A stretch of 64,000 nucleotides of DNA from assembly GCA_035288225.1 (NCBI GenBank), contig DATEAT010000007.1, positions 4,828-68,827 of the forward strand. Reading direction: 5' to 3'. Positions 22,323-62,677 of the stretch are shown here, one piece after another (position 1 is the first letter of the stretch; the number at the start of each line of letters is the position of its first letter). The notes below the pieces were generated by a model, which saw nothing but the letters and a program-made list of their open reading frames with translations, was not told where the DNA came from and ran no database searches. Position numbers and translations under genes: made by a program. This stretch comes from Anaerolineales bacterium. Its GTDB lineage: Bacteria > Chloroflexota > Anaerolineae > Anaerolineales > RBG-16-64-43.

Positions 22323-22994
22323 TCAGGGGACCACGATCTTCACCGTGAGCGGCGTGAGGCCGTTATCGCCCACGCCGAACTTGCTGCCGTCGGGCGCCTG
22401 CAACATCCAGTAGCCGATGTAGGTGCCCGACTTGGCCGGGGTGATCATCGTCACTGAGAGGAACAGATGGTCGCCGGGTTCGACGATCTCCGGGAAGCGC
22501 GCGGAGTTCGGGCCGTCCATGTGTTTGCCGCCGTTAAAGACCAGGCGGTACTCGCGGCTCCAGGTGCAGGTGCCGATGTTGCGCACGTCCCACGTCTTGC
22601 GGAAGGTTTCGCCGGCGGGGAGCAGCGCGCCGTCCTTGAGCCCGATATCGCCGACGAAGAAGGCTGCGTTGCAGAATGTGGTCAGGGTCGGGTGCACACC
22701 GGGCGTGCCGTAGAAGGCCGGGGTGAAGATGAGCGAGGCCGTGGCACTCGGCAGCAGCGGCACGAGCAGGGTGGCGGTGGGCGGCGGAAGGGTTGCGGTG
22801 GGCAGCGGCAGCGCCACGGTTGCAGTGGAGGTGGCGGCCAGCGACACCTGGGTGAGCATGGCCTGAACTGTTTGCGCAGCCTGAGTGGCCAGCGGCACCT
22901 CGGTGACAGCAGGCGCGCCCGTGCTGCAGCCGGCCAGCACGAGCGACGCAGCCAGCACAGTCAACGCCAGGGTGCGCAAGGTGTGGGATGTCAT
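22323..22994 (-). CDS. Lipoprotein with NBR1-type Ig-like domain, paralog 2
   Basis: ATG 22994 after GGAGGA. Lipobox LAGC. The C-terminal domain is collinear with paralog 1 (FVGDIGLKDGALL..TFRKTWDVRNIGTCTW..YWMLQAPDGSKFG). Confidence 0.6.
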   Translation of the reverse strand: MTSHTLRTLALTVLAASLVLAGCSTGAPAVTEVPLATQAAQTVQAMLTQVSLAATSTATVALPLPTATLPPPTATLLVPLLPSATASLIFTPAFYGTPGVHPTLTTFCNAAFFVGDIGLKDGALLPAGETFRKTWDVRNIGTCTWSREYRLVFNGGKHMDGPNSARFPEIVEPGDHLFLSVTMITPAKSGTYIGYWMLQAPDGSKFGVGDNGLTPLTVKIVVP

Positions 22995-23045
22995 TGGGTC
23001 CTCCTCGTGCCAGGGTGTGCGGCGCATGGGCCGTTGCGGCCCGCC

Positions 23046-25801: not shown

Positions 25802-26236
25802 GTGGCCGAAGCCATTCTGACCCGATGCGGCTATCGCTGCGACCTCTGCCTGGCGTATGCCCCCAATATTGCGCACACTCCCTCGAACCAACAGAAACTG
25901 AGCGACGGCTGGCACGCGTACTTCGGTTTCCGCATTCTCCCGGACGAAATTCACTGCGACGGCTGCCTGAACGAGAATTCGCGGCTGATCGATACGGCTT
26001 GTCCGGTGCGCCCATGTGTCATCGAGAGAGGGCTTGAGAACTGCGCCCAATGCGCCGAGTATGTCTGCGCGCGCCTGAGCCAGCGGCTCGTCTCGTACGA
26101 CCAGCTTCTGGAGAAGACCGGCCGGCCGGTCCCGAACGACGATTACGAGTGTTTCATTCGCCCGTATGAGAACAAGCGACGCCTCGCCGCCCTGAGGGCG
26201 GCGGCGCCCGCGGGTGCACGCCGGCAACGGGAGTGA
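25802..26236 (+). CDS. Cys-rich DUF3795-like protein
   Basis: CGYRCDLC..CDGC..CPVRPC..CAQCAEYVC pattern. GTG 25802 lies 6 nt after AGGAGG. The ORF-track N-terminal extension was rejected. Confidence 0.45.
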   Translation: MAEAILTRCGYRCDLCLAYAPNIAHTPSNQQKLSDGWHAYFGFRILPDEIHCDGCLNENSRLIDTACPVRPCVIERGLENCAQCAEYVCARLSQRLVSYDQLLEKTGRPVPNDDYECFIRPYENKRRLAALRAAAPAGARRQRE

Positions 26237-26379
26237 CCTCCTTGCGCCCTGCGGCCAGGGACATTCGGGGCGGCCCGCCTGGCGGCCGCCGCGGCCAGTG
26301 TCCGCGCGTTGGCGCAGCGCGGGCCACTGCCTGCCGAAGGCATTCGAACTACAGGCTCCATCATACGGGAGGGGGGCCG

Positions 26380-29121
26380 ATGAAACATGGAACCCGCCTG
26401 CTGCCCGTCGGCGTTCTATTGATCTCCAGTCTCCTTCTCTTCACGTCTCGCGACCTCCCTGCGGCTGGTGCCGCGCCCGACCTGCTTGACTTGGAGGAGG
26501 TCTGGACGACAGGACTCGTCTATTGGGCGGCACCGGGTCAAATCGAAATCGGAGATTTCGATTTGGATGGCGCGACCGACATGGTCACATGCGCCCACGA
26601 CCAGATCCTCGTACTCAACCACACGTCGCTCGACACCTACGAACCCGTCTGGTACAGCCGACCGACGAAGTGCAGTCGGGTCGCAGCCGGAAATCGCGAC
26701 GGCACAGGAGTCGGCGAGTTTTACGTCGCAACCACCGACGGCCACGTCCAGGTCGTCGACGCAGACACGCACGCCACGCTTGGAACGATCAGCCTGCCCT
26801 ACGGGGCGGCGCCCGCCGACCTCTTGGTGGCCGACGCCGACGGTGACACCATACCCGAAGTAATCGTGACGCGAGCCGAAGACACGCTTTTCTACGACGC
26901 GGTGTCACTGGCGCTGGAGTGGCAAGCCTCCGGGCTCGGCGGGAACCTCCTGGTTGTCGCCAATATCGACGGTGACCCTGACCCCGAAACCCTCGTCAAC
27001 GGCAACCCGGCCCACATCCTCAACGCCTCGCTTCAGGTTCAAGAATGGGAACGGGCCGGTGGCTTTGGGCCGCACCTGGCCGCCGGCGACGTGGATGGCG
27101 ACGCGATGGCGGAGATCGCCTTCCTGGTGAATTGGGACTACGACATCGTCGTCTATGACGCCGATGTCCAGGCCATCAAGTGGCAACGACACGAAACCTC
27201 CAGGGCCACCGAAGTGCTGGTGACCGATCTCCAACACGATGGGCTGGCAGACGTCATTGCGGGGCCAATTGGCCTTGACGGGGCGCGTGGCTACAACGGC
27301 CAGGACGGGACACCCTTGTGGGCAATCCACAACTCCACTCATGGCCTGGCGGGGTTGACCTTCGGCGATGTGGACGACGACGGCACCATCGAAATCGTGT
27401 GGGGTTCCAGCTCATCGGCACACGCCATGGTCGTGGGCGATTGGCAGGCCCAAGCTGTCGAGTGGGTCAGCCCTGAGTGGGAGGAATACACGGCGGTCGA
27501 GGTAGGAGATGTCGATCTGGATGGCTCGGAGGAGATCGTCTCCGCGACCCGGTCCCGCGGCATCACCGTCTACGACGGCCAGACCCACCAGGTCGAGTGG
27601 ACGACCTCGTCGTCGGGACTCGGTGCCTATCTGGAATCCATGGAGTTGGGGGAATTCGATGGCGACCCCGAGCTCGAAGTCCTTGCTGCATTTGGAAGCG
27701 ACCCAACCCTGCGCACCTACGATGGCCTCACCGGCGCGCTGGAATGGCAGGGCCCCGATCTGGGCTCCGGCGGGACGCTTGGCCTGGAGGTTGCCAATCT
27801 CGACGGCGACCCGGCACAGGAAATAGTGCTGGGCCTTTCCAGCGGGTCACATATCATCGTGCTCAACGGAGCCACGCCCTTCATCCAGTGGGATAGTGGG
27901 TTATTGGATGGCGGCATCGAAGACTTCGACGTGGGCGAGCTTGATGGCGACGGTGTTCTGGAGCTTGCCGTTCTCACCAACTTGGCCGTCCACGTCTTTG
28001 AGACGGCGACCTGGCAGGAAAGGCTGGACCAGCCGGTTGCGTCCGGGCGGGAAGTGGCCATCGCCGGCGATGCTTCGGGCGGCCCGGGCCAGTTGCTGGT
28101 GGCCCGTTGGACCTCTCCCTCCAGCTACATCGTCGAGTCGTGGAGAGGAGACAATTTTGCCAAAGCCTGGGACCGCCCGCTGGCGATCGCCGCTCTGGAT
28201 GACATCCTTACCGCCGATCTGGATGGCGACGACATGCAGGAATTCCTGCTCAATGGGACCCTGGCCTGGGGCCCGCCGAAAACCCCTCTACTGTGGATCG
28301 GCGGGCAAGTGCTTCCTCCACTCTGGAACTACAAGATGGCGGACGTCTGGGGATCTATCACGAGCACGACCGTTTCGGACGTTGATAGTGACGGTTCGCA
28401 GGAGGTGGTCTGGACCAGCGCCACGACGCTGCAGGTGATGGACGCGGTCAGTCACCCGCTGCAGCGCGTATATCTGCCCCTGGCCGTGAATGCAGAGAGC
28501 GAAGTATGGACCACGATCTTCGAGGAAGGATTCGAGGGAACTTTCCCCGGTGCATGGTTGGTATTCGACAACTATCCGCAGAACGGGATCCACTATTGGG
28601 GGAAGCGCAACTGCCGGGCGTTCTCCGGGACCTACAGCGGGTGGAGTATCGGCGCGGGCTCCCAGGGCGGGAGCCTTCCGTGCGGTGCCGAATATACGAA
28701 CAATGCCGAGTCGTGGATGATGCGCGGCCCGATGAGCCTGGCCGATGCCACAGCCGCGGAACTGAGATTCAAGATGTGGCTCAATAGCGAGCCCAATGAC
28801 GGCCTGTGCCGTATGGCCTCCATCGATGGGTACAACTTCTATGGATACTGCACCTCTGGCGTGACCTCGGGATGGGTGGATCAGGTGCTTGATCTGGAAG
28901 ATGTGTACACGCTTGGAGATTTGACGGGGGAGCCGAAGGTCTGGGTCGCGCTGATCTTCATCAGCGACGGAGCCATCTACTACCAGGAGGGGGCCCACGT
29001 GGACGACATCCTGATGCGCAAGTGCGTGTGGTCGCGCTGCACGCTCTCGCTCGACGGCGAGGCGCAACCCGGCCCGCTCGATCTCCGCGAGTGGGGCACC
29101 GAGATGATGGTTCCGGAATGA
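26380..29121 (+). CDS. Secreted FG-GAP/VCBS-type repeat protein (14 DxDxDG-type blades) with C-terminal beta-sandwich domain
   Basis: ATG 26380 after GGGAGGGGGG. Signal peptide. I counted 14 repeats such as GDFDLDGATD, ADADGDTIPE and ANIDGDPDPE. The C-terminal about 200 aa starts with FEEGFEGTFPGAW. Confidence 0.7.
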   Translation: MKHGTRLLPVGVLLISSLLLFTSRDLPAAGAAPDLLDLEEVWTTGLVYWAAPGQIEIGDFDLDGATDMVTCAHDQILVLNHTSLDTYEPVWYSRPTKCSRVAAGNRDGTGVGEFYVATTDGHVQVVDADTHATLGTISLPYGAAPADLLVADADGDTIPEVIVTRAEDTLFYDAVSLALEWQASGLGGNLLVVANIDGDPDPETLVNGNPAHILNASLQVQEWERAGGFGPHLAAGDVDGDAMAEIAFLVNWDYDIVVYDADVQAIKWQRHETSRATEVLVTDLQHDGLADVIAGPIGLDGARGYNGQDGTPLWAIHNSTHGLAGLTFGDVDDDGTIEIVWGSSSSAHAMVVGDWQAQAVEWVSPEWEEYTAVEVGDVDLDGSEEIVSATRSRGITVYDGQTHQVEWTTSSSGLGAYLESMELGEFDGDPELEVLAAFGSDPTLRTYDGLTGALEWQGPDLGSGGTLGLEVANLDGDPAQEIVLGLSSGSHIIVLNGATPFIQWDSGLLDGGIEDFDVGELDGDGVLELAVLTNLAVHVFETATWQERLDQPVASGREVAIAGDASGGPGQLLVARWTSPSSYIVESWRGDNFAKAWDRPLAIAALDDILTADLDGDDMQEFLLNGTLAWGPPKTPLLWIGGQVLPPLWNYKMADVWGSITSTTVSDVDSDGSQEVVWTSATTLQVMDAVSHPLQRVYLPLAVNAESEVWTTIFEEGFEGTFPGAWLVFDNYPQNGIHYWGKRNCRAFSGTYSGWSIGAGSQGGSLPCGAEYTNNAESWMMRGPMSLADATAAELRFKMWLNSEPNDGLCRMASIDGYNFYGYCTSGVTSGWVDQVLDLEDVYTLGDLTGEPKVWVALIFISDGAIYYQEGAHVDDILMRKCVWSRCTLSLDGEAQPGPLDLREWGTEMMVPE

Positions 29122-29278: not shown

Positions 29279-31393
29279 ATGAACCTCATCCGGCGCCGCC
29301 TGCTGATGTGCAGCCTCCTCGCGGCGGGCTTCTTGCTTCCGCCGGCGCTGCCGTCCCCTGCCGCCGACAAGCGCGAGATGCGCTCTGACCTGATATGGGA
29401 GTGGGCGACGGGATCGATCAAGACCAGGTTGCCGGAACGCTCGATCGAAGTCACCGATCTGGATGGGGATGGCGCCACCGACATGGTTGTGTGCCAGCAG
29501 GGTTACGTCACCAATTTGAACTTTGTCCCTCCCGCGGCCTATGCACCTGCCTGGTTCAGTGTTTACATGCGATGCACCGCGATCGCTACCGGCGACCGGA
29601 ATGGGGACGGCGCACGGGAGATCTACGCCCTGGTAGACCCCGGACGTGTCGTCATCCTGGATGCGAGCGGCCGCGCCGAACTGGGCGCATTCGACCTGCC
29701 CGCCGGCGTCGTCTCATATGATCTCGCCGTTGCCGATGTCGACGGTGACACCCATTCGGAGATCGTGGTCTCCCTCCGCGATCGCACGCTCGTCTATGAC
29801 GCGGCAACCTTTGCGCTGGAGTGGAGCGCGATCGGCCACGGTGCCGGTTCTGCCCACAACGGCGGAGTCCTTATCGCCAACATCGATGGCGATGCTTTGC
29901 TGGAAATTGTTGTCAACGGCGATGCCGGCCACATTCTGAACGCCGCTCTCCAGACGGAGGAATTCGGCATTGCCGGCGGATTGGGAAAGGACTTCGATCT
30001 GAGCGACGTCGACTCCGACGGCATGGCGGAAATCGTGTATGGCGAGAGTACCCAACTATACATCCTGGACGCTGATACGCTTTCGGTCAAGTGGCAACGC
30101 GGCGATCTGCCGATGGCGTACAGTGTGGTCGCCGTCGACCTGGACGGCAACGGCGAAACCGAAATCGTGCATGGAGATGGGAATGTGGTCCGTGGTCTCA
30201 ACGGGGCTAACGGCGCAACCCTGTGGACCTGGGACACTCCGCGCAACGAAACCGAGGGCCTTGTTGCCGGGGACCTCGACAGTGATGGCCTGGTGGAGTT
30301 GGGATGGGCGGCTCCCAGTGTCGGCGCCCTGTACATCGGGGACTGGCAATCGCAGACCGTCGACTGGGAGAGTTGGGACTATACGGGCACCTTCCTGGCA
30401 GAGACAGGTGATGTTGATGCCGATGGGGAAGGCGAGATTCTCGTCGCCCCGCGGTCGGGGGACTTGCTGGCTTACGCCGGGTCGTCGCACGATTTGCTCT
30501 GGTCGAAGGTGGACGACCCGGGGCTTTACCACACCTCCTTTCTCGAGCTGGGCCAGGTGGATGACGACTCCGCCCTAGAGATCCTTACCGCCAACTATTC
30601 GACATTGAGCGCGTTCGATGGGGCTACGGGGATGCGCGAGTGGGCGTATCACGTCTTCTCCTCGTCCGACCCCGCAGGGCTCGCTGTCGCCAATCTGGAT
30701 TCCGATCCGCAAGACGAGATCGTCATCGGCACCACGGCTGGCCACGTGCTTGTTCTGGACTCGGATGGAAGCACGGTATTGTGGGACAGCGGCGCCCAGC
30801 CTGGTTCGATCATTGATTTCTCCCTGGGCGACCTGAATGGTGACGGGGTCCTGGACCTGGCCGTCCTGACCGCTCAGGTCCTACGAGTGTTCACGACGGA
30901 CACATGGGAGCTGACCCAGGATGTTCCCTTCACGGATGGCGTTGCCATTGCCGTCGCCAACGGTGACGGGCGCAATGCGGGCGAACTGATCACCGCACGC
31001 TACGCCGGCTCCTACCTGCACACCCTCCAGGCCTGGAATGGCATCGACCTTCAACCCATCTGGCAGGAGTCACTATCCGTTGGCAGCGTTGAAGAGATCG
31101 ATGTCGCGGACCTGGATTCGGACGGCGTGCAGGAATTTCTCGTCATGGGCGTCTTTCGATACGACGTGATCGCGCATCCGAGCAGCTACCTGCGCATCGG
31201 CGCGCTGTATCACGACCCGGTGTGGGAGTATCAACTTCCCGACAATTGGGAGACGGTGTACGGAAGTGCGGCCTTCGACCTCGATAACGACTCGCGTCTG
31301 GAGCTTGTCCTGGGCGCCCATGCCACAGTCCAGGTGTATGAGGTCACGGGCTGGCCGGTGTATTACCTGTTTACTCCATTCGTGACACGCTGA
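29279..31393 (+). CDS. Secreted FG-GAP/VCBS-type repeat protein (14 blades), paralog lacking the C-terminal domain
   Basis: Signal peptide. 14 DxDxDG-type loops in the same blade order as the upstream gene (for example blade 4 ANIDGD and blade 10 ANLDSDP). Confidence 0.7.
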   Translation: MNLIRRRLLMCSLLAAGFLLPPALPSPAADKREMRSDLIWEWATGSIKTRLPERSIEVTDLDGDGATDMVVCQQGYVTNLNFVPPAAYAPAWFSVYMRCTAIATGDRNGDGAREIYALVDPGRVVILDASGRAELGAFDLPAGVVSYDLAVADVDGDTHSEIVVSLRDRTLVYDAATFALEWSAIGHGAGSAHNGGVLIANIDGDALLEIVVNGDAGHILNAALQTEEFGIAGGLGKDFDLSDVDSDGMAEIVYGESTQLYILDADTLSVKWQRGDLPMAYSVVAVDLDGNGETEIVHGDGNVVRGLNGANGATLWTWDTPRNETEGLVAGDLDSDGLVELGWAAPSVGALYIGDWQSQTVDWESWDYTGTFLAETGDVDADGEGEILVAPRSGDLLAYAGSSHDLLWSKVDDPGLYHTSFLELGQVDDDSALEILTANYSTLSAFDGATGMREWAYHVFSSSDPAGLAVANLDSDPQDEIVIGTTAGHVLVLDSDGSTVLWDSGAQPGSIIDFSLGDLNGDGVLDLAVLTAQVLRVFTTDTWELTQDVPFTDGVAIAVANGDGRNAGELITARYAGSYLHTLQAWNGIDLQPIWQESLSVGSVEEIDVADLDSDGVQEFLVMGVFRYDVIAHPSSYLRIGALYHDPVWEYQLPDNWETVYGSAAFDLDNDSRLELVLGAHATVQVYEVTGWPVYYLFTPFVTR

Positions 31394-34306: not shown

Positions 34307-36343
34307 ATGAGTGCCAACCGTAGCGCAGGCATCTCGCCGGGCGAGTACTCGGCCGCGCCTCCAGGCGAGAAGATCGGCGTGTACATCTGCCACTGCGGCA
34401 CCAACATCGCCGCCATGGTGGATGTTGCCGAGGTGGCCGAGTACGCCGGGGCGCTGCAGGGAGTGGCCGTCGCGCGCCACTACACCTACATGTGCTCCGA
34501 CCCGGGCCAAGCGATGATCCAGGAGGATATTCGCTCGCTCGGCTTGGACCGGGTGGTGGTGGCCTCCTGCTCGCCGCTCATGCACGAGCCCACCTTCCGT
34601 GCGGCGTGCGCCCAGGCCGGTCTCAACCCGTTTCTCTTCCAGATGACAAACATCCGCGAGCACGTCTCGTGGGTGAGCGACGACCGCAGCAGCGCAACGC
34701 AGAAGGCGCTGGCGTTGGTGACGGCAGCCGTGCGCCGGGTGTCATTGCAGCAGCCGCTCGAGACCCGCCAACTGGGAGTCACCCAGTCGGCGCTGGTGGT
34801 GGGCGGCGGTATTGCCGGCATCGAGGCCGCGCTACGCCTGGCCGATGCCGGCAAGCGAGTGTATCTGGTAGAGCGTGAGCCGTCGATCGGCGGGCACATG
34901 GCCCAACTCTACAAGACCTTTCCCACTCTCGACTGTGCGGCCTGAATTCTCACCCCCAAGATGGTGTCCGTGGGACGCCATGAGAACATCACACTCCTCA
35001 GCTACAGCGAGGTGGAAGCTGTATCCGGTTTCGTGGGGTCCTTCCAGGTGCGCGTGCGCCGCAAGGCGCGCCATGTGAAAGAAGATTTGTGCACCGGCTG
35101 CGGCACCTGCGTGCAGAAGTGTCCCTGGCGCAAGATCCCCTCCGAGTTCGACCTGGGCCTGGGCACCCGCCCGGCGATCTACTTCCCCTTCGGCCAGGCC
35201 GTGCCGCGCGTGCCGGTCATCGACACCGAGCACTGTGCCTACTTCGCCAAGGGCACCTGCCGCGCCTGCGCCAAATTTTGCCCGCGTGAAGCCATCGACT
35301 TCGAACAGACCGACCAGCAGCTCGAGCTCGAGGTCGGCACGATCATCCTGGCCACCGGCTTCCAGAACTACGACCCGCGCCGCGACTCGCGCTTCGGGTA
35401 CGGGGAACTGCCGGACGTGGTCACCGGGCCGGAGTTCGAACGGCTGGTGAATTCGGGCGGGCCCACATTGGGGCAGGTGCTGCGCGCCGACGGCACCCCA
35501 CCCAAGAAGGTGGCCCTCATCCATTGTGTGGGCAGCCGCGGCGAGGCACACGAATACTGCTCGCGCGTGTGCTGCATGTATTCGCTCAAGCTGGCGCACC
35601 TCGTCCACGATGCGACCGGGGCCGAGGTGACCGAGTTCTACCGCGACATGCGCACCTTCGGCAAGGACTACGAATCGTTCTACCGCCGAGTGGTTGCGGA
35701 GGGCATCCATACCTTCCGCTATGAGGGTGATGTGCAGGTGACCCAGGCCGATGGCCACTTGCGGGTGACCGCCACCGATGTGTTCACGGGAAAGCCGGCC
35801 GAGATCGAAAGTGACATGGTGATCCTGGCCACCGGCCTGGAGCCGCAGGCCGATCAACGGCAGGTGGCCCGCCGTTTCGGAGTGAGCCTCAGCCCGGACG
35901 GTTTCTTCATGGAGCGCCACCCCAAACTGGCGCCGGTGGAAACGGCCAGCGACGGCATCTTCCTGGCCGGCACCTGCCAGGGGCCCAAGGATATCCCCGA
36001 CAGCGTTGCCCAGGGGGGCGCCGCGGCGGCGGCCGCGCTCTCGCTGATGGATGCGGGCTACGTCTATCTCGAGCCCTTCACGGTGCACGTGCTGTCCGAG
36101 CGCTGCAGCGGCTGCCGCACCTGTCAGAACCTGTGCCCCTTCAGCGCGATCCAGATGACCGAGCACGACGGACGAACGGTCTCCACGATCAACGAAGTGC
36201 TGTGCAAGGGCTGCGGCACGTGCGCCGCCGCCTGCCCGGCCGGCGCCATATACCAGAACAACTTCTCCAACGATCAGGTCATCGCCGAAATCCTCGGGGC
36301 GCTGTCGATCGACCGCGCCGTTCCTCAGGAGGCCTTCCCATGA
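34307..36343 (+). CDS. hdrA: HdrA-like flavoprotein (heterodisulfide reductase subunit A family), selenocysteine-containing (TGA 34943-34945 read as Sec)
   Basis: ORFs 34307..34945 and 34961..36343 are in the same frame, separated only by TGA. Joined sequence: ..YKTFPTLDCAA-U-ILTPKMVSVGR... Other HdrA hallmarks: VYICHCGTNIA, GGGIAGIEAAL, CTGCGTC, CVGSRGEAHEYCSRVCCMYSLK, FLAGTCQGPKDIP, and a C-terminal 2x[4Fe-4S] ferredoxin. ATG follows AAGGAGGAG. Confidence 0.8.
34961..34981 (+). other. Putative bacterial SECIS-like hairpin (AUGGUGUCC gug GGACGCCAU)
   Basis: 9-bp stem including one G-U pair, starting 15 nt after the UGA. An equivalent hairpin follows the second UGA. Confidence 0.4.
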
Positions 36344-39300
36344 ACCGCTCCTCCCCCCGGACGGGCGTCTACGTCTGCCAGTGTGGGACCAATATTGCCG
36401 CGACGGTGGAGGTGCAGCAGGTAGCCGAGTTCGCGCGCGACCTGCCGGGCGTGGTGGCCGCCCGCAGTTACAGCTATATGTGCTCCGAGCCCGGCCAGGC
36501 GCTGATCAAGCAAGACATCCAGGACCACGGCCTCAACCGCGTGGTGGTGGCCTCCTGTTCGCCGCTCATGCACGAGCCCACATTCCGGCGCGCATGTGCC
36601 GAGGCCGGCCTCAACCCCTTCTGCATGCAGATGGCCAACATCCGCGAGCACTGTGCCTGGGTCATCGACGACCGTCAGCAGGCCACCGCCAAGGCCAAGC
36701 ATCTGGTGGCGGCCGCGGTCCGCCGGGTGGCTCAGCACCGCCCGCTGGAGATGCGCCAGGTGCATGTGGAGCCAGCCGCGCTGGTGGTGGGCGCGGGCAT
36801 CGCCGGCATCGAGGCGGCGCTGCGCCTGGCGGAGGCGGGCAAGCAGGTCTATCTGGTGGAGCGCGAGCCGTCGATCGGCGGCCACATGGCCCAGCTCTAC
36901 AAGACCTTTCCCACCCTCGACTGTGCGGCTTGAATACTCACACCCAAAATGGTGTCCGTTGGACGCCAAAAGAACATCAAGCTGCTGAGCTACAGCGAAA
37001 TCGAATCGGTTTCAGGCTATGTGGGCAACTTCGAGGTGCGCGTGCGGCGCAAGCCGCGCTACATCGATGAGAGCAAGTGCACCGGCTGCGGCAATTGCGC
37101 CACCGTCTGCCCGATCGAGGTGACCAACGTCTTCGACCTGGGGCTGAGCACGCGCCGCGCGGTGTACCGCCACTCGCCGCAAGCCGTGCCCGGCGCGTTT
37201 ACGATTGAGAAGCGCGGCATCGCCCCGTGCCGCAATGCCTGCCCAACCGACCAGCGCGCCCAGGGTTACATCGCCCTGGTTCGCCAGCGGCGTTTCGCCG
37301 ATGCCTACTGGGCCATCCGCCGCGAGCATCCCTTCCCCTCGGTGTGCGGGCGCGTGTGCAACCATCGCTGCGAAGATGCATGCAGCCGGGGCAGTTACGA
37401 TCAGCCGGTCAATATCATGGCCCTCAAGCGATTCGTCGCAGATTGGGCCTTCGACCATCGCGACCAGCTCCCGGCCCAGCGCGCCAAGTCGCTCACCGGC
37501 ACGCCCTTTGCCGTGCACCCGACGGCCAGCGGCAAGAAAATTGCGATCATCGGCGCCGGGCCGGCCGGGCTGACCACCGCCCTCGACCTGGTGCGCCTCG
37601 GCCACCAAACCACGGTATTCGATTCACTGCCGGTGGCCGGCGGGATGATGCGCGTGGGCATCCCGCCCCATCGCATGCCGCTGGAACTCATCGAATGGGA
37701 GATTCAGCAGATTCTGGACGAGGGCGTGCAATTGCGCCTGAACACGTGGGTTGACGACATCCCGGCGCTGCTCGACCAGGGCTACCATGCGGTGCTCATC
37801 GCCACCGGTGCCCACCAGGCCAAGAAGATTCCCATCCGCAACTCGAACCATCCCGACAACTGGCTCAGCCTGAACCTGTTGCGGCGTGTGGCGCAGGGCG
37901 AGGCGATCGACCTGCGCGAGCGCAGCGTGATCGTGATGGGCGGCGGCAACGTGGCCCTCGACACGGCGCGCACGGTAGTGCGCCTGGGCGCGCGCCAAGT
38001 GAGCATCGTGTGCCTCGAACCGCGCGGCGAGATGCCGGGCTTCGCCTGGGAAGTGGGGGTGGCCGAGCAGGAGGGCATCCACGTGCTGCCCGGGCGGACC
38101 TTTAAGGAAGTGGTGGTCAAGGGCAGCCGCATCAGCGGGCTGCGCTGCACCGAGGTTGTCTTCCGTGGCTTCAAGCGCGGGCGGCCCGATATCAGCGAGA
38201 TTCCCGGCACCGAGCACGTTGTGCCCGGCGATCTGGTGATCTGGGCCATCGGCCAGGGGCCGGATTTCTCCTTCCTGCCCGGCGACGGCAGCATCAACAC
38301 GTGTTATCCGGTGGGTATCCAGACCAACAGCGAGATGATGACCACCACCCCGGGCGTGTTCTGCGCGGGTGATGTGCGCCGCGGGCAGACCTTCTTTGTG
38401 GTCGACGCCATCGGCGAGGGCCACCACGCCGCGCGCTGCATCGACCGTTACCTGCGCGGCGAGCAGGGTGTGCAAGAAACGCATCGGCCGCCGGTGGTGG
38501 AATTGCGCCGCGAGGAGATCGAGCACAAATTGGAGCTGGGGGAAGCCGCGCGCCATCCGCGCGCGGTGATCCGCAACATCGGCGTGGAAGCGCGCCGGCT
38601 CAACTTCCGCGAAGTGGATCTCACGCTGACCGAAGCCGAGGCTGTGGCCGAGGCCGAGCGCTGCCTGCGCTGCGGAGTATGTTCCGAGTGCTTGGAGTGC
38701 GTCTCGGCATGCGAGCGAGGGGCGATCAACCACGACATGCAGGCCGAGATCTTGGATCTCAAGGTGGGGACGCTGGTGCTGGCCACCGGCTTCCGCGATT
38801 TCGACCCGCGAGTTGCCCCTGAGCTGGGTTACGGGCGCCTGCCAAATGTGCTGAGCGCTATGGAGTTTGAGCGGCTGATCAACACCGGCGGCCCGACGCT
38901 GGGCAAGGTGCTGCTCGCCAACGGTCAGCCGCCCAAGCGGGTGGCCATCGTGCACTGTGTGGGCAGCCGCGACGACCGCTACCACGAGTATTGCTCGCGC
39001 GCCTGTTGCATGTACTCACTCAAGATCGCCCAACTGGCACACGAGTACCTGCAGGCGGAGGTGTTCGAGATCTACCGCGACATGCGCTCCTTCGGCAAAG
39101 GCTACGAGGAGTTCTACAACCGCACGCGCGCGAGCGGCGTTAACTTCTTCCACGGCCGGGTGCGCGAGGTGACGGCGGTTGATGGACACCTGCGCGTGCA
39201 GTGGGAAGAGAGTTTCCACAACGAGCCCGACCAGGTGGACGTGGACCTCGTGATTCTCGCCACGGGCATGGAACCGCAAGGCGATACGGCACGCATGGCG

Positions 39301-39762
39301 AAGCTTTTCGGTCTCTCGCGCAGCCGGGATGGGTTCTTCCTCGAGCGCCATCCCAAGCTCGCCCCAGTGGAGACCTCCTCGCAGGGCATCTTCCTTGCCG
39401 GAGCGTGCCAGAGTCCCAAAGACATCCCCGACACGGTGGCGCAGGCCTCTGCCGCTGCAGCCGGCGCGCTGGCCCTCATCGACCAGCACACCATCAGCCT
39501 GGATCCCTCCATTGCCGAGGTGGAGGCGGCACGCTGCCTAGGCTGCGGCCAGTGTGCAGCCGCCTGCCCGTATGGGGCCATCGAACTGGCGCGCGGCAAG
39601 GCCGCGGTCAACGCCTACTTGTGCAAAGGCTGCGGCACGTGCGCCGGGGCGTGCCCGAACAAGGCCATGAGCCTCATCCATTTCGACGACCGCGAGTTGA
39701 TTGCCGAACTGGACGGTGCCCTGGCGTGGATCGATGCCGCCGAAGAGGTGGGCCATGTATGA
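36340..39762 (+). CDS. Chimeric HdrA-like flavoprotein with inserted GltD/NfnB-like NAD(P)H-binding module, selenocysteine-containing (TGA 36931-36933 read as Sec)
   Basis: ATG 36340 overlaps the hdrA stop (ATGA). ORFs ..36933 and 36949.. share a frame across TGA, in the identical TLDCAA-U-ILTPKMVSVGR context. The middle about 430 aa has CRNACP..VCGRVCNHRCEDAC, GKKIAIIGAGPAGL, VIVMGGGNVALD and GVFCAGD. The flanks are collinear with HdrA. Confidence 0.75.
36950..36968 (+). other. Putative SECIS-like hairpin (UGGUGUCC guu GGACGCCA)
   Basis: 8-bp stem starting 16 nt after the UGA at 36931. Confidence 0.4.
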
Positions 39763-40243
39763 ACCCAAGGTGATCGGATTCCTGTGTACCTGGTGCAGCT
39801 ACACCGGCGCCGACTCGGCCGGCACCTCGCGCCTGAAAACCCCGTGGAACCTGCGCGCCGTGCGCGTGCCGTGCTCCGGGCGCGTGGCGCCGGAGCTCAT
39901 CCTGCGCGCCTTCGACCAAGGGGCCGACGGCGTTCTGGTGCTCGGCTGCCACATCGGCGAATGCCACTACGACAGCGGCAACCATCGCGCCGCTAAGCGC
40001 ATCCCGCTGCTGCTCTCCATCCTGGAGTTTGCCGGGATGCAGCCCGAGCGGCTGCGTTTGGATTGGGTGTCGGCCTCGGAGGGCGATCGCTACGCGCGGA
40101 TCGTGAGCGAGTTTGTCGACGCGCTGCGCCCACTTGGGCCCGACACCTGGCGTATCAGCGGCGCCGCCCCGAGGGCCGACGCGGCGATCGGCGTGCCGCT
40201 GGCGGCGTCGTCGGAGCTGAGCGGAGGCGCACCATGTCCATAA
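39755..40243 (+). CDS. mvhD: MvhD/FlpD-like protein (methyl-viologen-reducing hydrogenase delta subunit family)
   Basis: GFLCTWCSYTGADSAG..VPCSGRV..GADGVLVLGCHIGECHY. The start overlaps the upstream stop by 8 nt. Confidence 0.8.
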   Translation: MYEPKVIGFLCTWCSYTGADSAGTSRLKTPWNLRAVRVPCSGRVAPELILRAFDQGADGVLVLGCHIGECHYDSGNHRAAKRIPLLLSILEFAGMQPERLRLDWVSASEGDRYARIVSEFVDALRPLGPDTWRISGAAPRADAAIGVPLAASSELSGGAPCP

Positions 40244-41127
40244 GCGAAGCCATGCAATCCGCGGCGCGCGATGTGCTGGCCTCCGGCCAAGTACAACGGG
40301 TCATCGGCTACGAGGTAGGCCCGCACGGCCGCGTTCGCCCGGCGATCATCGACCGGCCGGAGGAGGCCGGGCGCCTGGTGTGGAGCGCGGACTGCACACA
40401 TAACCTGACTGTCTACCTGCAGCGCGCCTTGAACGGCGAGAACGGCCGCGCCTCGCACGAGGCCGCGACCCCGCCGACGCGCGTCGCCATCGTCGTCAAG
40501 CCGTGCGACAGCCGCGCGATCAATGTGCTGCTCGCCGAGCACCAGTTCTCACGCGAGCAGGTTTTCGCCATCGGCATGGCCTGCGAGGGGATACGCCAGG
40601 GCGCGCCGGCCAGTGTGCCGGAGGCGACGCTGCAGGCACGCTGCCTGCGCTGCCGCGAGCGGGTGCCGGTAGTCCAGGATGTGCTGCTCGGCGAGCCGCC
40701 GAGCGCGCTGCCGGAGGCGCTGCCGGACGAGGCGCTGGCGCACGTGCGCGGCATGCCGCCGGCCGAGCGGGCCGCCTTCTGGCTCAGCCAGTTCGATCGG
40801 TGCATTCGCTGCTACGCCTGTCGCCAGGCCTGTCCGATGTGCAATTGCCCGACCTGTCTCTTCGAACAAGAGGATGCACTGTGGGTGGGCATGCGCATCG
40901 CGCCCTCCGAGAAGCGCACCTTCCACTTGGGGCGCGCGCTGCACCTCGCCGGGCGCTGCGTCGGCTGTAACGAGTGCGAACGAGTGTGCCCGATGGGCAT
41001 TCCGATCGGGCTGCTCAACCGCCATCTGGCGGAGACCGTCGAGAGCCTGTACGGTCATCGGGCCGGGATGCAGCCGGTGCTCTCACCGGTGACGGGCATG
41101 CTCAGCGCGGAGGAGAGTGCCCCATGA
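40234..41127 (+). CDS. Iron-sulfur protein, 4Fe-4S dicluster type (FlxC / HydB / AsrA-related)
   Basis: VKPCDSRAINVL, CIRCYACRQACPMCNC and CVGCNECERVCPMGIP. Overlaps mvhD by 10 nt. Confidence 0.6.
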   Translation: MSISEAMQSAARDVLASGQVQRVIGYEVGPHGRVRPAIIDRPEEAGRLVWSADCTHNLTVYLQRALNGENGRASHEAATPPTRVAIVVKPCDSRAINVLLAEHQFSREQVFAIGMACEGIRQGAPASVPEATLQARCLRCRERVPVVQDVLLGEPPSALPEALPDEALAHVRGMPPAERAAFWLSQFDRCIRCYACRQACPMCNCPTCLFEQEDALWVGMRIAPSEKRTFHLGRALHLAGRCVGCNECERVCPMGIPIGLLNRHLAETVESLYGHRAGMQPVLSPVTGMLSAEESAP

Positions 41128-42122
41128 AGACTCTCTCGCGAGAGAATCTCAACCTCTGGCTGGATGGGCTGGCGGCGCAGCAGGTGCTCATCGCCCCGCA
41201 CCTCGAGGCGCAAGGCGTGTTCTATCGCCCGGTGCAGCGGGCCCAGGAGATTGCCTGGGAGGCAGGCCGCCCGGTGCTCTCGGCCAAGGAATTCCTGTTT
41301 CCCCCCAGCGAACGCCTGCTCAAGGTGGAGAAGCGCGGGCCGGACATCCGTCTCGAGGCCAGCCCTTCCGCCGCGCCACAAGTGATCTTTGGCCTACGCC
41401 CGTGCGATGCGCGCGGCATCCGCGTGTTGGACGCGGCCTTCGTCGATACACCGCCGATTGACCCCCAGTATGCGAGCCGCCGTGAGAACACGCTGCTCGT
41501 GGGGCTGGCCTGTCGCAGCATGGGCGCCTCCTGCTTCTGTACCGCCGTGGGCCTGGCACCGGATGACCCGCGCGACATGGACGTGATGTTCAGCGATCGC
41601 GGGGCGACGCTGGCCGTGCAGGCCCTGACCCCGCGCGGCGAGGCGCTCATCGCCAACCTGGCGCTGGTCGAGGAGCCAGGGGAAGTGGCGCCCGCCTCGC
41701 GACGAGAGGTGAGCGGCCTGCCAACGGCCGAGGCTTGGAAAGAGAGTTACAGCGACGCGCGATGGGCCAAGCACGGCGAGCGCTGCCTGAGCTGCCGCCT
41801 GTGCGCTTACGTCTGCCCCACCTGCCGCTGTTACGACGTACGCGATGAGGCGCTGCCCTCCCCGCCGGGCGAGGCACACTTCGAGCGGTTGCGCACATGG
41901 GATAGCTGCACGCGGGAAGGCTACCGGCGCACGGCCGGCGGGCACAACCCGCGCGCGGCTTCGGGCAGCCGCCTGCGCAACCGGCTGCTGTGCAAGTTCG
42001 TCTACTACCCGCATCAGTATGGCCCTGCCGCCTGCACCGGTTGCGGTCGCTGCCTCGACGCATGCCCGGTGAACCTCGACCTGCTCGAGATTGGCGGCGC
42101 GCTTCAGGAGGCTGCCCAATGA
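41124..42122 (+). CDS. Iron-sulfur protein, anaerobic sulfite reductase subunit A / sulfhydrogenase beta (HydB) / FlxB-like
   Basis: LRPCDARGIRVLD, CFCTAVG, CLSCRLCAYVCPTCRCYD and CTGCGRCLDACPVNL. ATGA overlap with the upstream gene. Confidence 0.65.
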   Translation: MKTLSRENLNLWLDGLAAQQVLIAPHLEAQGVFYRPVQRAQEIAWEAGRPVLSAKEFLFPPSERLLKVEKRGPDIRLEASPSAAPQVIFGLRPCDARGIRVLDAAFVDTPPIDPQYASRRENTLLVGLACRSMGASCFCTAVGLAPDDPRDMDVMFSDRGATLAVQALTPRGEALIANLALVEEPGEVAPASRREVSGLPTAEAWKESYSDARWAKHGERCLSCRLCAYVCPTCRCYDVRDEALPSPPGEAHFERLRTWDSCTREGYRRTAGGHNPRAASGSRLRNRLLCKFVYYPHQYGPAACTGCGRCLDACPVNLDLLEIGGALQEAAQ

Positions 42123-42964
42123 GCACAGCCGACGGCACCGATCCGATGTATCCACTCCTGGGGCGATTGGTTTCCAGCCGCGACATGGGGCGCGAGATCA
42201 AACTGCTCGGGGTGAAGCTGCTCAATGGAACACAGCCCCGCTTTCCAGCCTATGCGCCGGGTCAGTTCGCCTTCCTTTCGGCGTTCGGAATCGGCGAGGC
42301 GCCCTTCGGGCTGGCCTCCACCACCGAACGAGGCGAAGTGCTTGAGTTCGCCGTGCAGCGCCTGGGCTCCGTGACGACCGGCCTGCACGAGCTGGCCGAG
42401 GGCGATGCGCTGGGGGTGCGCGGCCCCCTGGGCAACACCTTCCCGATGGAGGCCTTCCAGCACAAGAACTTGCTCGTGCTCGGCGGCGGCATCGGCGGCG
42501 CGCCGTTGCGCCCGCTGATTCACAGCGTACTCGACCACCGCCAGGATTATGGTCAATTGACCATTCTGTGGGCAGCCCGCCACCCCTCGCTGCTCATATT
42601 CCGCGACGAATACGAAAGTTGGCGCGCCGCGCCGCACACCGAGCTGCACCTGACCGTGGATGAGGCGGATGCCGCGTGGGATCATCACGTGGGCCTGATG
42701 ACCGATCTTGTGCGGCAGGTGGCGCCCTCAGCCGCCAACACCATCGCCATCACCTGCGGGCCGCCGATTATGATCTATCACGTCGACAAGCTGCTCAGCG
42801 AACTGGGCTTCGCGCCCGAGCAGCGCTACGTCACGCTCGAGGCGCGCATGCACTGCGGCCTGGGCAAGTGCGGACGATGTAATATGGGCGAGCTCTTGGT
42901 GTGCCGCGACGGGCCGGTCTTTTCTATGGCCCAGGTCGGCAACTTCTTGGAGAGTTACCTGTAG
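42119..42964 (+). CDS. FAD/NAD(P)-binding oxidoreductase with C-terminal [2Fe-2S] (AsrB / HydG / PyrK / NfnA / FlxA-like)
   Basis: PGQFAFLS, LLVLGGGIGGAPLRPL and the C-terminal CGLGKCGRCNMG...VCRDGPVF. ATGA overlap with the upstream gene. Confidence 0.7.
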   Translation: MSTADGTDPMYPLLGRLVSSRDMGREIKLLGVKLLNGTQPRFPAYAPGQFAFLSAFGIGEAPFGLASTTERGEVLEFAVQRLGSVTTGLHELAEGDALGVRGPLGNTFPMEAFQHKNLLVLGGGIGGAPLRPLIHSVLDHRQDYGQLTILWAARHPSLLIFRDEYESWRAAPHTELHLTVDEADAAWDHHVGLMTDLVRQVAPSAANTIAITCGPPIMIYHVDKLLSELGFAPEQRYVTLEARMHCGLGKCGRCNMGELLVCRDGPVFSMAQVGNFLESYL

Positions 42965-53401: not shown

Positions 53402-53947
53402 ATGAGCCAGCCCACGCCTTCCACCTCACCCGGCGGCACCCCGGCTTATCGTGATCTGCTGACAAGCTCGTTGTTGATGGGTCTGGGGGGCTGGGCGCTC
53501 ATTGCCGCGCTCGTCTTTCTCGTCTCGCCCACCCTCGGCCCGCGCTGGGCGTTCTTCTTCGCACTCTTCATCGCCCTGGTGGGCACCTCCACTCCGCTGC
53601 TGTGGTACCTCAATCGCCGTTTCTCGCCCGATCCATTCCCAAGCCCAGGCGTGCTATGGCGCGAGGCCGTGGAAGTCGGCGTCTGGGGGTTGTTCCTTGT
53701 TTGGCTGCGCGTCGGGCGCCTGCTCACCCCCTTTGCCGCATGGACGCTGACTGGCGCTGTCTTCGCCGTGGAGCTCCTGCTGCGGCTGTACGAGCGCAGC
53801 CGATGGGCGCCATCGACCTCCGTGCGTTCGCCCGCGGCCCCTGTGGAGGCAACGCCCCCGGCCGAGGCAGCCGAGCCGCCGACGGCATCGCTCGTCACGC
53901 CTCCTTTCATCGATGATGAGTTGGATTCGGACGATCCGCCCGCATGA
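53402..53947 (+). CDS. Membrane protein (4 TM helices, acidic Pro/Ala-rich tail), unknown function; translationally coupled to selA
   Basis: Hydrophobic profile of the ORF. The stop overlaps the selA start (ATGA at 53944). Confidence 0.5.
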   Translation: MSQPTPSTSPGGTPAYRDLLTSSLLMGLGGWALIAALVFLVSPTLGPRWAFFFALFIALVGTSTPLLWYLNRRFSPDPFPSPGVLWREAVEVGVWGLFLVWLRVGRLLTPFAAWTLTGAVFAVELLLRLYERSRWAPSTSVRSPAAPVEATPPAEAAEPPTASLVTPPFIDDELDSDDPPA

Positions 53948-55323
53948 GCCTGCGCGAGCTTCCCTCGGTTGATGTGCTTCTACAGCAGCCCCACACGCGC
54001 CGCCTGACCGAGGCCTACGGGCGCGATCTCACCCTGGATGCGTTGCGCAGCGCGCTGCAAGGCGCGCGGGATGCCGTACGCGCCGGGCAACCCGTTCCAT
54101 CGGCCGAGGTGCTCCTCGAAAGCGCACAGCGGAACCTGGCCGAGTGGACCGCTCCCAGCCTGGTGCCGGTGATCAATGCCACCGGCGTCATCCTGCACAC
54201 CAACCTCGGCCGCGCGCCGCTCAGCGCCTCCGCCCTGCGCGCCATGCTGCAGGTGGCACAGGGCTACGCCACCCTCGAATACGACCTGCCCTCCGGCCAG
54301 CGCGGCACGCGCACGGCGCATGCCGAACGATTGCTCACCCGCCTCACCGGCGCTGAAGCCGCACTGGTCGTCAACAACAATGCCGGGGCCGTCCTGCTCG
54401 CGCTCACTGCCCTCGCCAAGGGGCGCGAGGTGATCATTGCCCGCTCGCAGCTGGTCGAGGTTGGCGGGGGGTTCCGCATCCCGGACGTCATGCGCCAGTC
54501 GGGCGCGCGCCTGGTCGAGGTGGGTACAAGCAATCGCACGCACCCGGCCGACTTCAAAGAAGCACTCGGCGCGCGCACAGCAATGCTGCTGCGTGCGCAC
54601 CATTCGAACTTCCGCCTGGTCGGGTTCACGAGTGAGCCGACACTGGCCGAGATGGCGGAGGTGGCGGCGGCACATCAGGTGCCTGTGGTGGACGACCTGG
54701 GCTCGGGTGCGCTGCTCGATACCGCGGCCTTCGGATTGGGCCACGAACCCATGGTCCAGGAATCGCTCGCGGCGGGCGCGGCGCTGGTGATGTTCTCGGG
54801 CGATAAACTGCTGGGCGGCCCGCAAGCTGGAATCCTGGTCGGGCACGAGGCGTTGATGGCACGCCTGCGCAAGCATCCGCTGGCGCGCGCGCTGCGCGCC
54901 GACAAGTTGTGCCTGGCGGCGCTGGAAGCCACGCTGCTCCACTATGCCCGCGGCGAGGCCCTTCAGGCGCTGCCCGTGTGGCAGATGATCGCCGCGCCGC
55001 TCACCACGCTGCGCGTGCGCGCCGAGCGCTGGGCGGCCGAGCTCGGACAGGGACAGGCGATCGAGAGCCGCTCCACCGTGGGCGGTGGCAGCCTGCCCGA
55101 AGAAACGCTGCCCACCTGGGCGCTGGCCCTTACGCTGCCCAAGCCGCAGACGGTGCTCGCGCGCCTTCGCCAGGCGAGCCCGCCGATCATCGCCCGCGTG
55201 GAGGAGCAGCGCGTGCTGCTCGACCCGCGCACCGTTTTGCCGGATCAGGATGAGATGCTCCTGCGCCAGCTGGCCGAGGTGCTCGCGGCCTCCACGACTA
55301 CACAGACAGGGAAGGCGTCATGA
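53944..55323 (+). CDS. selA: L-seryl-tRNA(Sec) selenium transferase
   Basis: VINATGVILHTNLGRAPL, LEYDL..G.RG.R, ALVVNNNAGAVLLAL and FSGDKLLGGPQAGILVG (PLP lysine). Confidence 0.88.
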   Translation: MSLRELPSVDVLLQQPHTRRLTEAYGRDLTLDALRSALQGARDAVRAGQPVPSAEVLLESAQRNLAEWTAPSLVPVINATGVILHTNLGRAPLSASALRAMLQVAQGYATLEYDLPSGQRGTRTAHAERLLTRLTGAEAALVVNNNAGAVLLALTALAKGREVIIARSQLVEVGGGFRIPDVMRQSGARLVEVGTSNRTHPADFKEALGARTAMLLRAHHSNFRLVGFTSEPTLAEMAEVAAAHQVPVVDDLGSGALLDTAAFGLGHEPMVQESLAAGAALVMFSGDKLLGGPQAGILVGHEALMARLRKHPLARALRADKLCLAALEATLLHYARGEALQALPVWQMIAAPLTTLRVRAERWAAELGQGQAIESRSTVGGGSLPEETLPTWALALTLPKPQTVLARLRQASPPIIARVEEQRVLLDPRTVLPDQDEMLLRQLAEVLAASTTTQTGKAS

Positions 55324-59215: not shown

Positions 59216-59261
59216 CCTCGCCTCCCTTGACCCGTCGATCGCCCTCCACGCGGCGATCGTC

Positions 59262-62555: not shown

Positions 62556-62677
62556 AACGGCGAGAGGTCTACCGCGCGGCAGCGCCCGCTCGCGGCGCGG
62601 GCCGCCGGATCGGTCGTGTGCAGAGGGATGGCTTTGATGAAGGAAAGGCACGGGAAACCTCGCTCGAGAGCGTTCGA

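Follow-up and report, generated by a model that had tools for sequence, protein, structure and literature searches.

Probable selenocysteine codons followed by SECIS-like hairpins in tandem hdrA genes of an uncultured Anaerolineales bacterium

Two adjacent genes of the HdrA family, each interrupted by one in-frame UGA codon, lie within a 64,000-nucleotide stretch of DNA from an uncultured Anaerolineales bacterium (class Anaerolineae, phylum Chloroflexota; GenBank assembly GCA_035288225.1, contig DATEAT010000007.1, positions 4,828 to 68,827 of the forward strand). We refer to this whole stretch as the window, to the upstream hdrA gene as gene 1, and to the downstream gene, a fusion of hdrA with a module resembling the glutamate synthase small subunit (GltD), as gene 2. 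Our comparative analysis of the DNA indicates that the UGA of gene 2, at positions 36931-36933, is with high probability a selenocysteine (Sec) codon, and that the hairpin immediately downstream would act as a bacterial selenocysteine insertion sequence (SECIS). HdrA has been known as a selenoprotein family since the 1990s and was among the original archaeal selenoproteins. An earlier reading of the window, made from its letters and hereafter called the sequence-only reading, had argued for recoding rather than decay. This view is strongly supported by the conservation of the UGA, a synonymous freeze of the codons that form the stem, the contrast with cysteine-codon controls, and the pairing of Cys and Sec at one position of the family.

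Results

Both UGA codons occupy the Cys/Sec position of HdrA

HdrA proteins are recognized by an N-terminal Fe-S domain, a thioredoxin-reductase-like FAD domain, and inserted and C-terminal ferredoxin domains, and the products of both genes are homologous to HdrA over this full length. Residues 21–667 of the gene 1 product align to the solved HdrA chains 8rvu, 5odc, 9sfi and 7bkb (E = 7e-213 to 5e-185), and Pfam and NCBIfam matches concur with this identity. In gene 2, the HdrA profiles cover two blocks, residues 7–304 and 773–1129, separated by an insert of ~500 residues (about 291–802) that breaks the inserted-ferredoxin region of HdrA and resembles the glutamate synthase small subunit or NfnB. 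Specifically, Fer4_20 and Pyr_redox_2 match at residues 295–694, PRK12771 matches with E = 2.6e-142, and GltD/gltA and NAD(P)-binding profiles span residues 291–802. The two proteins are 61% identical.

The TGA at 36931-36933 was confirmed to the base. Its sequence context, HMAQLYKTFPTLDCAA-U-ILTPKMVSVGR, is identical at both TGAs from codon −16 to codon +11 of the codon table, as the sequence-only reading had proposed for a shorter span. The open reading frame (ORF) at 36949-39762 likewise shares its frame with the ORF that ends at the TGA, so that read-through from the ATG at 36340 yields 1140 residues. In the alignment to solved HdrA, the TGA falls on residue 205 of 8rvu, where TLDCSMCIL has its second Cys; by the alignment offsets, this would be residue 197 in 5ODC numbering. 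The site is the CxxU motif of the HdrA selenoprotein family and corresponds to Sec197 of Methanococcus maripaludis HdrA. Among the best 120 database homologs spanning the site, all 119 motif-carrying full-length proteins have Cys at the aligned position, in the form FPTLDC-xx-C-I-x-TP.

Three other metagenome assemblies hold the locus at 99.7–99.9% identity, with 17–24 differences each. The sequence-only reading had named a change to TGC or TGT in other reads as evidence that would speak against it. The three assemblies carry TGA at both sites (one contig spans site 2 only) and no such polymorphism, and this attempt at refutation failed. The public gene calls in three ENA metagenome assemblies break both genes at the TGA, into products of 212 and 460 amino acids for gene 1 and 197 and 937 amino acids for gene 2; the split calls are seen at L240 (3359-8814, equivalent to 34307-39762 of the window) and also at L241 and L242.

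A compact hairpin lies directly downstream of each UGA

The hairpin UGGUGUCC-GUU-GGACGCCA that the sequence-only reading placed at 36950-36968 was recovered at exactly these coordinates and is the minimum-free-energy structure of the region. We compared it with the bacterial SECIS (bSECIS) model of Zhang and Gladyshev, whose criteria were taken as quoted in a 2026 review (PMC13188914): a loop of 3–9 nt on a stem of 4–16 bp, at least one G among loop positions 1 and 2 (most often G and then G or U), a distance of 16–37 nt from UGA to loop, and a minimum free energy (MFE) of −7.5 kcal/mol or lower. The gene 2 hairpin has a 3-nt loop (GUU) on eight uninterrupted pairs, and the loop opens with G-U-U at gene 2 and G-U-G at gene 1. 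The loop begins 24 nt past the UGA (36934-36957), within a range of 19–26 nt across the clades described below, and the 19-nt hairpin alone folds at −11.3 kcal/mol. Compared with the bSECIS consensus and its prototype, Escherichia coli fdhF, the element is alike in being a stem-loop within the ORF directly past the UGA, with a small loop opening with G and then U. It differs in its minimal 3-nt loop closed by C-G and in having no bulged U.

A lower helix pairing the UGA itself (36925-36933/36977-36985; 9 bp, GCGGCUUGA/UCAAGCUGC) was considered as part of the element and rejected, its median pairing probability being 0.05 across 130 Sec sites. The lower helix predicted at the gene 1 site differs from that predicted at the gene 2 site.

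The UGA and the hairpin are conserved together across clades

We scanned one genome each of 185,579 species with the DNA pattern F-P-T-x-D-C-x-x-TGA-x-x-T-P. The scan returned at least 119 loci with TGA at this codon (136 sites with the window; one chance match). At least 130 distinct HdrA sites with TGA were established; they divide into four clades, which have different hairpins at one common offset. Nearly all TGA sites are flanked by long open frames on both sides, of ~200 codons upstream and 455–470 or 920–960 codons downstream unless the contig ends. Among the matches listed, the hosts are Anaerolineae and other Chloroflexota, Dehalococcoidia, Firmicutes of the Syntrophomonadaceae, Pelotomaculum and Moorella type, Thermodesulfobacteriota and Thermodesulfovibrio. 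These lineages include some for which Sec-HdrA was reported in 2006 (PMC1794560).

The peptide that follows TPK/R-M differs by clade, and a hairpin always forms at the same place: GGUGUCC-GUN-GGACGCC in Anaerolineae, GCUGC-GGC-GCAGC (extended) in Firmicutes, GGAUGAC-GGA-GUCAUCC in Thermodesulfobacteriota and UGGCCUC-GGU-GAGGUCA in Dehalococcoidia. When the sites are anchored on the loop, stem positions 1–7 each show two to six pair types across clades; position 2, for example, is occupied by C-G at 52 sites, G-C at 46, U-A at 13, A-U at 9, G-U at 9 and U-G at 1. The apical part is near-universal despite the unrelated stems, with a 3-base loop opening with G (GUN, GGC, GGA or GGU) and a C-G closing pair in 97/130 sites. 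This compact motif, C-[GNN]-G, may be what SelB contacts in the HdrA gene family.

Sec-HdrA genes with a coding-region hairpin of the Firmicutes or Dehalococcoidia type also appeared in metagenome-assembled genomes (MAGs) of Bathyarchaeota (L025), Methylocystaceae (L074), Solirubrobacterales (L011) and Planctomycetota (L094). Mis-binning of contigs or lateral transfer is suggested by the occurrence of a SECIS of bacterial style in an archaeal bin and of Firmicutes-like sequence in lineages that are aerobic.

The hairpin accompanies TGA and is absent from most Cys-codon homologs

As a matched control, we replaced TGA by TGY in the pattern and searched metagenome contigs, which yielded 116 distinct Cys-type sites; the stem and loop figures were obtained by an identical search procedure for both sets. 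The 42-nt segment downstream of the codon has a similar G+C content in the two sets (0.52 for Sec sites, 0.53 for Cys sites), whereas its mean MFE is −10.5 kcal/mol at Sec sites and −6.7 kcal/mol at Cys sites (Mann-Whitney p = 2.6e-20). An MFE of −8 kcal/mol or lower is reached by 92% of Sec sites versus 37% of Cys sites. The best uninterrupted stem averages 6.7 bp versus 3.9 bp, and a stem of at least 6 bp is found at 84% of Sec sites versus 9% of Cys sites. Similarly, the loop opens with G at 95% of Sec sites (130 sites) versus 28% of Cys sites. These contrasts in stem, loop and energy indicate that the hairpin tracks the TGA and not the protein family.

By its own criterion, the sequence-only reading would have been refuted if the hairpin region showed no conservation beyond what the amino acids demand. 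The opposite was found, and here the synonymous-site test across 52 orthologous sites was decisive. At these 52 distinct Anaerolineae-type sites, the codons that form the stem are nearly invariant (Val +7 GTG in 50/50, Ser +8 TCC in 51/52, Gly +10 GGA in 51/52 and Arg +11 CGC in 37/38), with an entropy of 0–0.18 bit. In comparison, the loop codon Val +9 varies (GTG/GTT/GTC at 33/15/4 sites; 1.22 bit), and the remaining 15 codons with four- or six-fold degeneracy from −10 to +25 have entropies of 0.72–2.14 bit. The four stem codons have the four lowest entropies of 20; by rank, the probability of this is about 2e-4. A synonymous freeze of the same kind is seen in the other three clades, each around its own stem.

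The tandem arrangement and both TGAs are shared with other Chloroflexota

At least 11 further genomes from Anaerolineae and related Chloroflexota hold orthologous tandem loci with both TGAs, at 67–93% nucleotide identity. Both TGAs and the gene order are kept in an Anaerolineae MAG at 93% identity (L102) and in loci at 67–74% identity. Counting fusions that carry the Sec codon, 9 complete and several truncated orthologs were found among the loci fetched, and at least 15 Chloroflexota genomes hold one in all. The sequence-only reading had argued that two independent stop mutations at the homologous codon are very unlikely. The two TGAs are indeed not independent events: because orthologous tandem loci carry both, an old duplication of the gene must have passed on the Sec codon together with its hairpin. 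The further expectation of the sequence-only reading that one operon would need two Sec insertions is supported.

In some Anaerolineae loci (L049, L077, L088 and L093), the distance between two Sec-HdrA sites is 3.3–3.6 kb and not about 2 kb. The two downstream ORFs of L049, L077 and L093 are each as long as plain HdrA, a tandem unlike the hdrA and fusion pair of the window.

Selenocysteine machinery and alternative explanations

A selA gene is encoded in the window (Table 1). It lies 17 kb downstream of the two Sec genes and is followed by genes for an M24 peptidase and tsaD, not by selB.

Several results weigh against Sec insertion at these sites. No tRNA-Sec was found in the 64-kb window by ARAGORN, which found no tRNA at all, or by Rfam, nor was one found in the 620-bp gap upstream of selA. 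A Pfam scan of about 45 long window ORFs, which did find selA, returned neither selB nor selD, so that one of the four Sec-decoding genes (selA of selA/selB/selC/selD) is present within the window. Rfam searches of the whole window at the gathering threshold, and with permissive E-values at both sites and upstream of selA, returned only noise; to our knowledge, Rfam has no model for bacterial SECIS elements of this type. In a 60-nt context, the gene 2 hairpin is not significantly more stable than shuffled sequences (z = −1.5). One sequence alone therefore leaves the hairpin unremarkable, and the question is settled by comparison with other sequences. The sequence-only reading had also proposed a synonymous comparison confined to the two paralogs. 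Nucleotide identity over the 14 codons past the TGA is 86% against a mean of 67%, but the test was underpowered (rank 57 of 643 windows): the four stem codons are identical, which against a background same-codon fraction of 0.61 gives p ~0.14. The paralogous hairpins differ solely in the loop (GTG/GTT), in the direction that a SECIS constraint predicts.

Genome-wide reassignment of UGA is ruled out. TGA terminates 19 of 29 window genes, both hdrA genes included, and recoding is therefore site-specific. Third-position G+C content (GC3) on both sides of in-frame TGAs was also used to look for more selenoprotein candidates. This screen was not discriminating at the 66% G+C of the window; its strongest candidates were adjacent separate genes, such as clpB/Ig-like and dnaG/sigma-70.

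The best-surviving alternative, which we consider highly improbable, is that recoding of the UGA inserts a residue other than Sec, either always or on occasion. A Cys-tRNA resembling tRNA(Sec) might decode the codon as Cys via SelB, or near-cognate read-through might insert Cys or Trp when selenium is scarce. SelB-dependent UGA-to-Cys recoding has been described for some bacteria, and the missing sightings of tRNA-Sec and selD within the window would fit it. However, the high-scoring selA equivalog 17 kb away would be without a role unless Sec-tRNA is made, and this site is where a classical selenoprotein family classically has its Sec.

A truly split gene is less probable still. Translation would stop at the TGA and restart at the ATG at 36949, five codons past it, and the resulting proteins of 197 and 937 amino acids, annotated publicly as two genes, would pair non-covalently. 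This ATG, however, encodes the conserved Met of TPKM, which is found in Cys-type homologs too, and the ILTPK codons between the TGA and the ATG are kept in frame at all sites. A split would also lose the conserved residue equivalent to Cys197, and would leave unexplained why the G-loop hairpin occurs with TGA but not with TGY.

The weakest explanation, a pseudogene in which the TGA arose by nonsense mutation or by an error of assembly or sequencing, has a negligible probability: gene callers do end both genes at the TGA, and TGA is the common stop codon in the host genome, but the codon is kept in three assemblies that differ at 17–24 other positions, in the MAG with 93% identity and at some 130 distinct sites in homologs, its flanks are open for 200 and 940 codons with intact domains, and the orthologous downstream ORFs show neither frameshifts nor relaxed selection. 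Taken on this evidence, Sec insertion remains by far the most probable fate of the UGA at 36931-36933.

Gene order and neighboring genes

The coordinates of the cluster and of the associated elements are given in Table 1. All six genes of the cluster are joined by overlapping stop and start codons (ATGA or longer) at 36340-36343, 39755-39762, 40234-40243, 41124-41127 and 42119-42122; at the first junction, the ATG of gene 2 (36340) overlaps the TGA stop of gene 1 as ATGA. This arrangement suggests one translationally coupled operon, starting at a strong AAGGAGG site before 34307. Downstream, the cluster is bounded by a histidine kinase gene on the opposite strand.

Table 1. Features of the tandem hdrA locus and of selA in the window
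Feature	Coordinates	Strand	Remarks
hdrA (gene 1)	34307..36343	+	678 codons including one putative in-frame Sec codon; full-length HdrA
Putative Sec-UGA of gene 1 (CxxU motif)	34943..34945	+	Aligns with second Cys of TLDC-xx-C-IL in solved HdrA
Predicted SECIS hairpin of gene 1, UGGUGUCC-GUG-GGACGCCA	34962..34980	+	Folds at −11.3 kcal/mol
Gene 2, HdrL-like: hdrA with inserted GltD/NfnB-like module	36340..39762	+	1140 codons including one putative in-frame Sec codon
Putative Sec-UGA of gene 2	36931..36933	+	Cys at aligned homolog position; TGA kept in other assemblies and orthologs
Predicted SECIS hairpin of gene 2, UGGUGUCC-GUU-GGACGCCA	36950..36968	+	8-bp stem; GUU loop starting 24 nt past UGA
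mvhD/flpD, Cys form (C-T-W-C)	39755..40243	+	PF02662 FlpD, E = 8e-48; VhuD and HdrA2 C-terminal matches
Fe-S protein, 4Fe-4S dicluster motifs	40234..41127	+	Pfam Fer4 families; public gene call
HydB/ShyB/AsrA-like Fe-S subunit	41124..42122	+	PF17179 Fer4_22, E = 2e-29
HydG/AsrB-like FAD/NAD(P)-binding subunit with Fe-S site	42119..42964	+	NAD_binding_1, DHODB_Fe-S_bind
selA, L-seryl-tRNA(Sec) selenium transferase	53944..55323	+	PF03841, E = 4e-132; TIGR00474 equivalog, 547.6 bits versus cut-off 267.9

The start of mvhD overlaps the stop of the fusion gene, giving the succession of fusion and mvhD that characterizes HdrL loci. In anaerobes that use Sec, MvhD/FrhD is commonly a CxxU selenoprotein as well. 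In this operon, only the two HdrA-type proteins would use Sec, and the MvhD encoded at 39755-40243 is a Cys form (FLC-TW-C). The product of 41124..42122 matches the ShyB, HydB and AsrA profiles (E = 3e-44 to 4e-40), every match lying under the curated cut-offs, and that of 42119..42964 matches hydrogenase gamma, AsrB and HydG (E = 1e-55 to 2e-44). No gene of the HdrB/HdrC type (CCG domain) was found in the four downstream genes or among the window ORFs scanned with Pfam, and the operon contains no hydrogenase genes (frhA/frhG/mvhAG), glpC or hdrBC. Since no HdrB/HdrC subunits are encoded with HdrA, the product should not be named a heterodisulfide reductase in the strict sense.

Elsewhere in the window, two adjacent genes on the forward strand (26233-29121 and 29279-31393) encode large, secreted-looking repeat proteins of 962 and 704 amino acids that are rich in D-x-D-G-D and have faint public matches to FG-GAP/beta-propeller domains. 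On the reverse strand, a pair of paralogous small proteins (21192-21872 and 22323-23027), each with an N_BRCA1_IG Ig-like domain (E = 4e-17 and 2e-22), is encoded between dnaG and a gene for a ClpB/ClpC-type AAA+ chaperone. Cytochrome c maturation genes (CcmC-like, CcmB) lie at 58508-62765 on the reverse strand beside a gene for a 698-amino-acid protein with two cytochrome c domains. The presence of cytochrome c genes together with a strictly anaerobic-type Hdr module hints at a facultative or respiratory lifestyle.

Discussion

From what is established about Sec insertion in bacteria, we infer SelB binding, to which the frozen stem codons and the tie of the hairpin to TGA lend indirect support, and selenium incorporation along the following lines. 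During translation of the hdrA-gltD fusion mRNA, the hairpin located 16–34 nt past the UGA (36950-36968, with its GUU apical loop) would serve as the SECIS. SelB-GTP-Sec-tRNA(Sec) would bind the apical loop and be brought to the ribosome, Sec would be delivered at the UGA in the A site, and termination would be avoided. The outcome of insertion at 36931-36933 would be a single protein of 1140 residues, and the same insertion would take place at 34943-34945 in the upstream hdrA. In each protein, Sec would take the place of the second Cys in the C-x-x-C motif of the thioredoxin-reductase-like domain (Cys/Sec197).

The composition and physiological role of the complex can be proposed from the gene content. 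A soluble complex for flavin-based electron bifurcation, linked to NAD(P)H, is the probable assembly of the two Sec proteins with MvhD and the three Fe-S/FAD subunits of the HydB/HydG-like type. NAD(P)H is indicated as a substrate by both the FAD/NAD(P) subunit resembling HydG and the insert resembling NfnB.

The locus has close precedents. By 2006 at the latest, HdrA was counted among the selenoprotein families of bacteria, with 16 members known from them at that time, in Syntrophobacter, Syntrophus, Syntrophomonas, Moorella, Carboxydothermus and Desulfotomaculum, and a tandem hdrA-hdrA arrangement was already noted (PMC1794560). The motif is catalogued as CxxU (PMC13188914). The genes described here share the family, the CxxU motif, the Sec residue and an mvhD gene directly after them with the Sec-HdrA of archaea (Sec197 of Methanococcus and Methanocaldococcus) and of bacteria. 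With the bacterial forms they also share a SECIS, here a predicted one, in the coding region directly downstream of the codon, as well as the tandem already reported. They differ from known Sec-HdrA in their host, an uncultured member of the Anaerolineae with 66% G+C, and in the lack of hydrogenase genes, glpC or hdrBC in the operon.

The nearest described counterpart of the fusion is HdrL of Desulfobacterium autotrophicum HRM2, a heterodisulfide reductase/glutamate synthase fusion that was regarded in 2009 as unique to that organism (PMC2702500). Sec is present in two of its three copies (HdrL1 and HdrL3), each copy is followed by mvhD, and one locus has a tandem hdrL/hdrA (PMC2702500). Both HdrL and gene 2 consist of HdrA with an NAD(P)H-binding module similar to the glutamate synthase small subunit, carry Sec (predicted in gene 2), are followed by mvhD and stand in tandem with a plain hdrA. 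The two hosts belong to different phyla, and the likeness follows the description of HdrL in PMC2702500. HdrA9–11 of ANME-1 archaea have a ~500-amino-acid NfnB-like insertion in the inserted-ferredoxin domain, with NAD(P)H as the predicted electron carrier (PMC9012536). The architecture of gene 2 is the same, with a module of ~500 amino acids breaking HdrA after the first ferredoxin motif, and the top database homologs of the window protein include Methanophagales proteins. In contrast to gene 2, which is bacterial and would carry Sec, the archaeal homologs found have Cys at the site.

A further relative is the Desulfotomaculum reducens locus Dred_1325-30, in which a large HdrA with NADH-binding domains lies beside a second HdrA and which is related to FlxABCD-HdrABC (PMC4759654). 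Like this locus, the window pairs a large, NADH-binding HdrA with an ordinary one. With FlxABCD-HdrABC, the NADH dehydrogenase/heterodisulfide reductase of Desulfovibrio vulgaris, the window operon shares an FlxD-like MvhD, Fe-S subunits and an FAD/NAD(P)-binding subunit beside the hdrA genes. It differs in lacking HdrB and HdrC, and the profile matches of its subunits are of the HydB/HydG/AsrAB type and lie under the cut-offs. The window locus is therefore a new, mis-annotated instance of a described architecture and not a new kind of system.

The role of the two Sec residues can be considered in the light of HdrA structures, which point either to a ligand of the partner protomer's N-terminal cluster or to a Cys-Sec redox pair beside the bifurcating FAD. 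In the crystal structure, Cys197 of one protomer ligates the N-terminal [4Fe-4S] cluster of the other, which makes HdrA an obligate dimer, and heterodimers have been proposed for tandem hdrA genes (PMC9012536). In a 2026 cryo-electron microscopy study of the M. maripaludis enzyme, the density suggests a selenylsulfide between Sec197 and a Cys, located between cluster A3 and FAD, and the authors declared its role unresolved (PMC13518236). Both window proteins retain the N-terminal domain and the CxxU motif, which makes a two-Sec heterodimer plausible. A more specific model, which we offer as a speculation with the odds against it, is that the Sec-HdrA and the Sec-HdrA/NfnB fusion form an obligate heterodimer in which each Sec would be the fourth ligand of the partner's N-terminal [4Fe-4S] cluster or would form a Cys-Sec selenylsulfide by the FAD. 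The resulting HdrBC-less complex would have two flavin bifurcation sites and two selenium-tuned clusters, and would pass electrons from NAD(P)H to ferredoxin in Anaerolineae. If this were true, a Chloroflexota lineage in which both partners conserve Sec would provide a natural system for probing the role of Sec197 in HdrA.

The current understanding of recoding is unchanged by these findings, and their main value lies in annotation: both genes are called as truncated ORF pairs in public assemblies, and the same mis-annotation probably affects most of the at least 130 TGA-containing HdrA genes. The four clades arrive at the same C-[GNN]-G hairpin with different encoded peptides, and their comparison is thus a natural experiment that should be useful for SECIS models. 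For the organisms, the results add an uncultured lineage of Anaerolineae to the probable users of Sec in flavin-based electron-bifurcating enzymes, and indicate that Sec-bearing HdrA/GltD fusions of the HdrL type, formerly believed to be restricted to a single sulfate reducer, occur widely in Chloroflexota.

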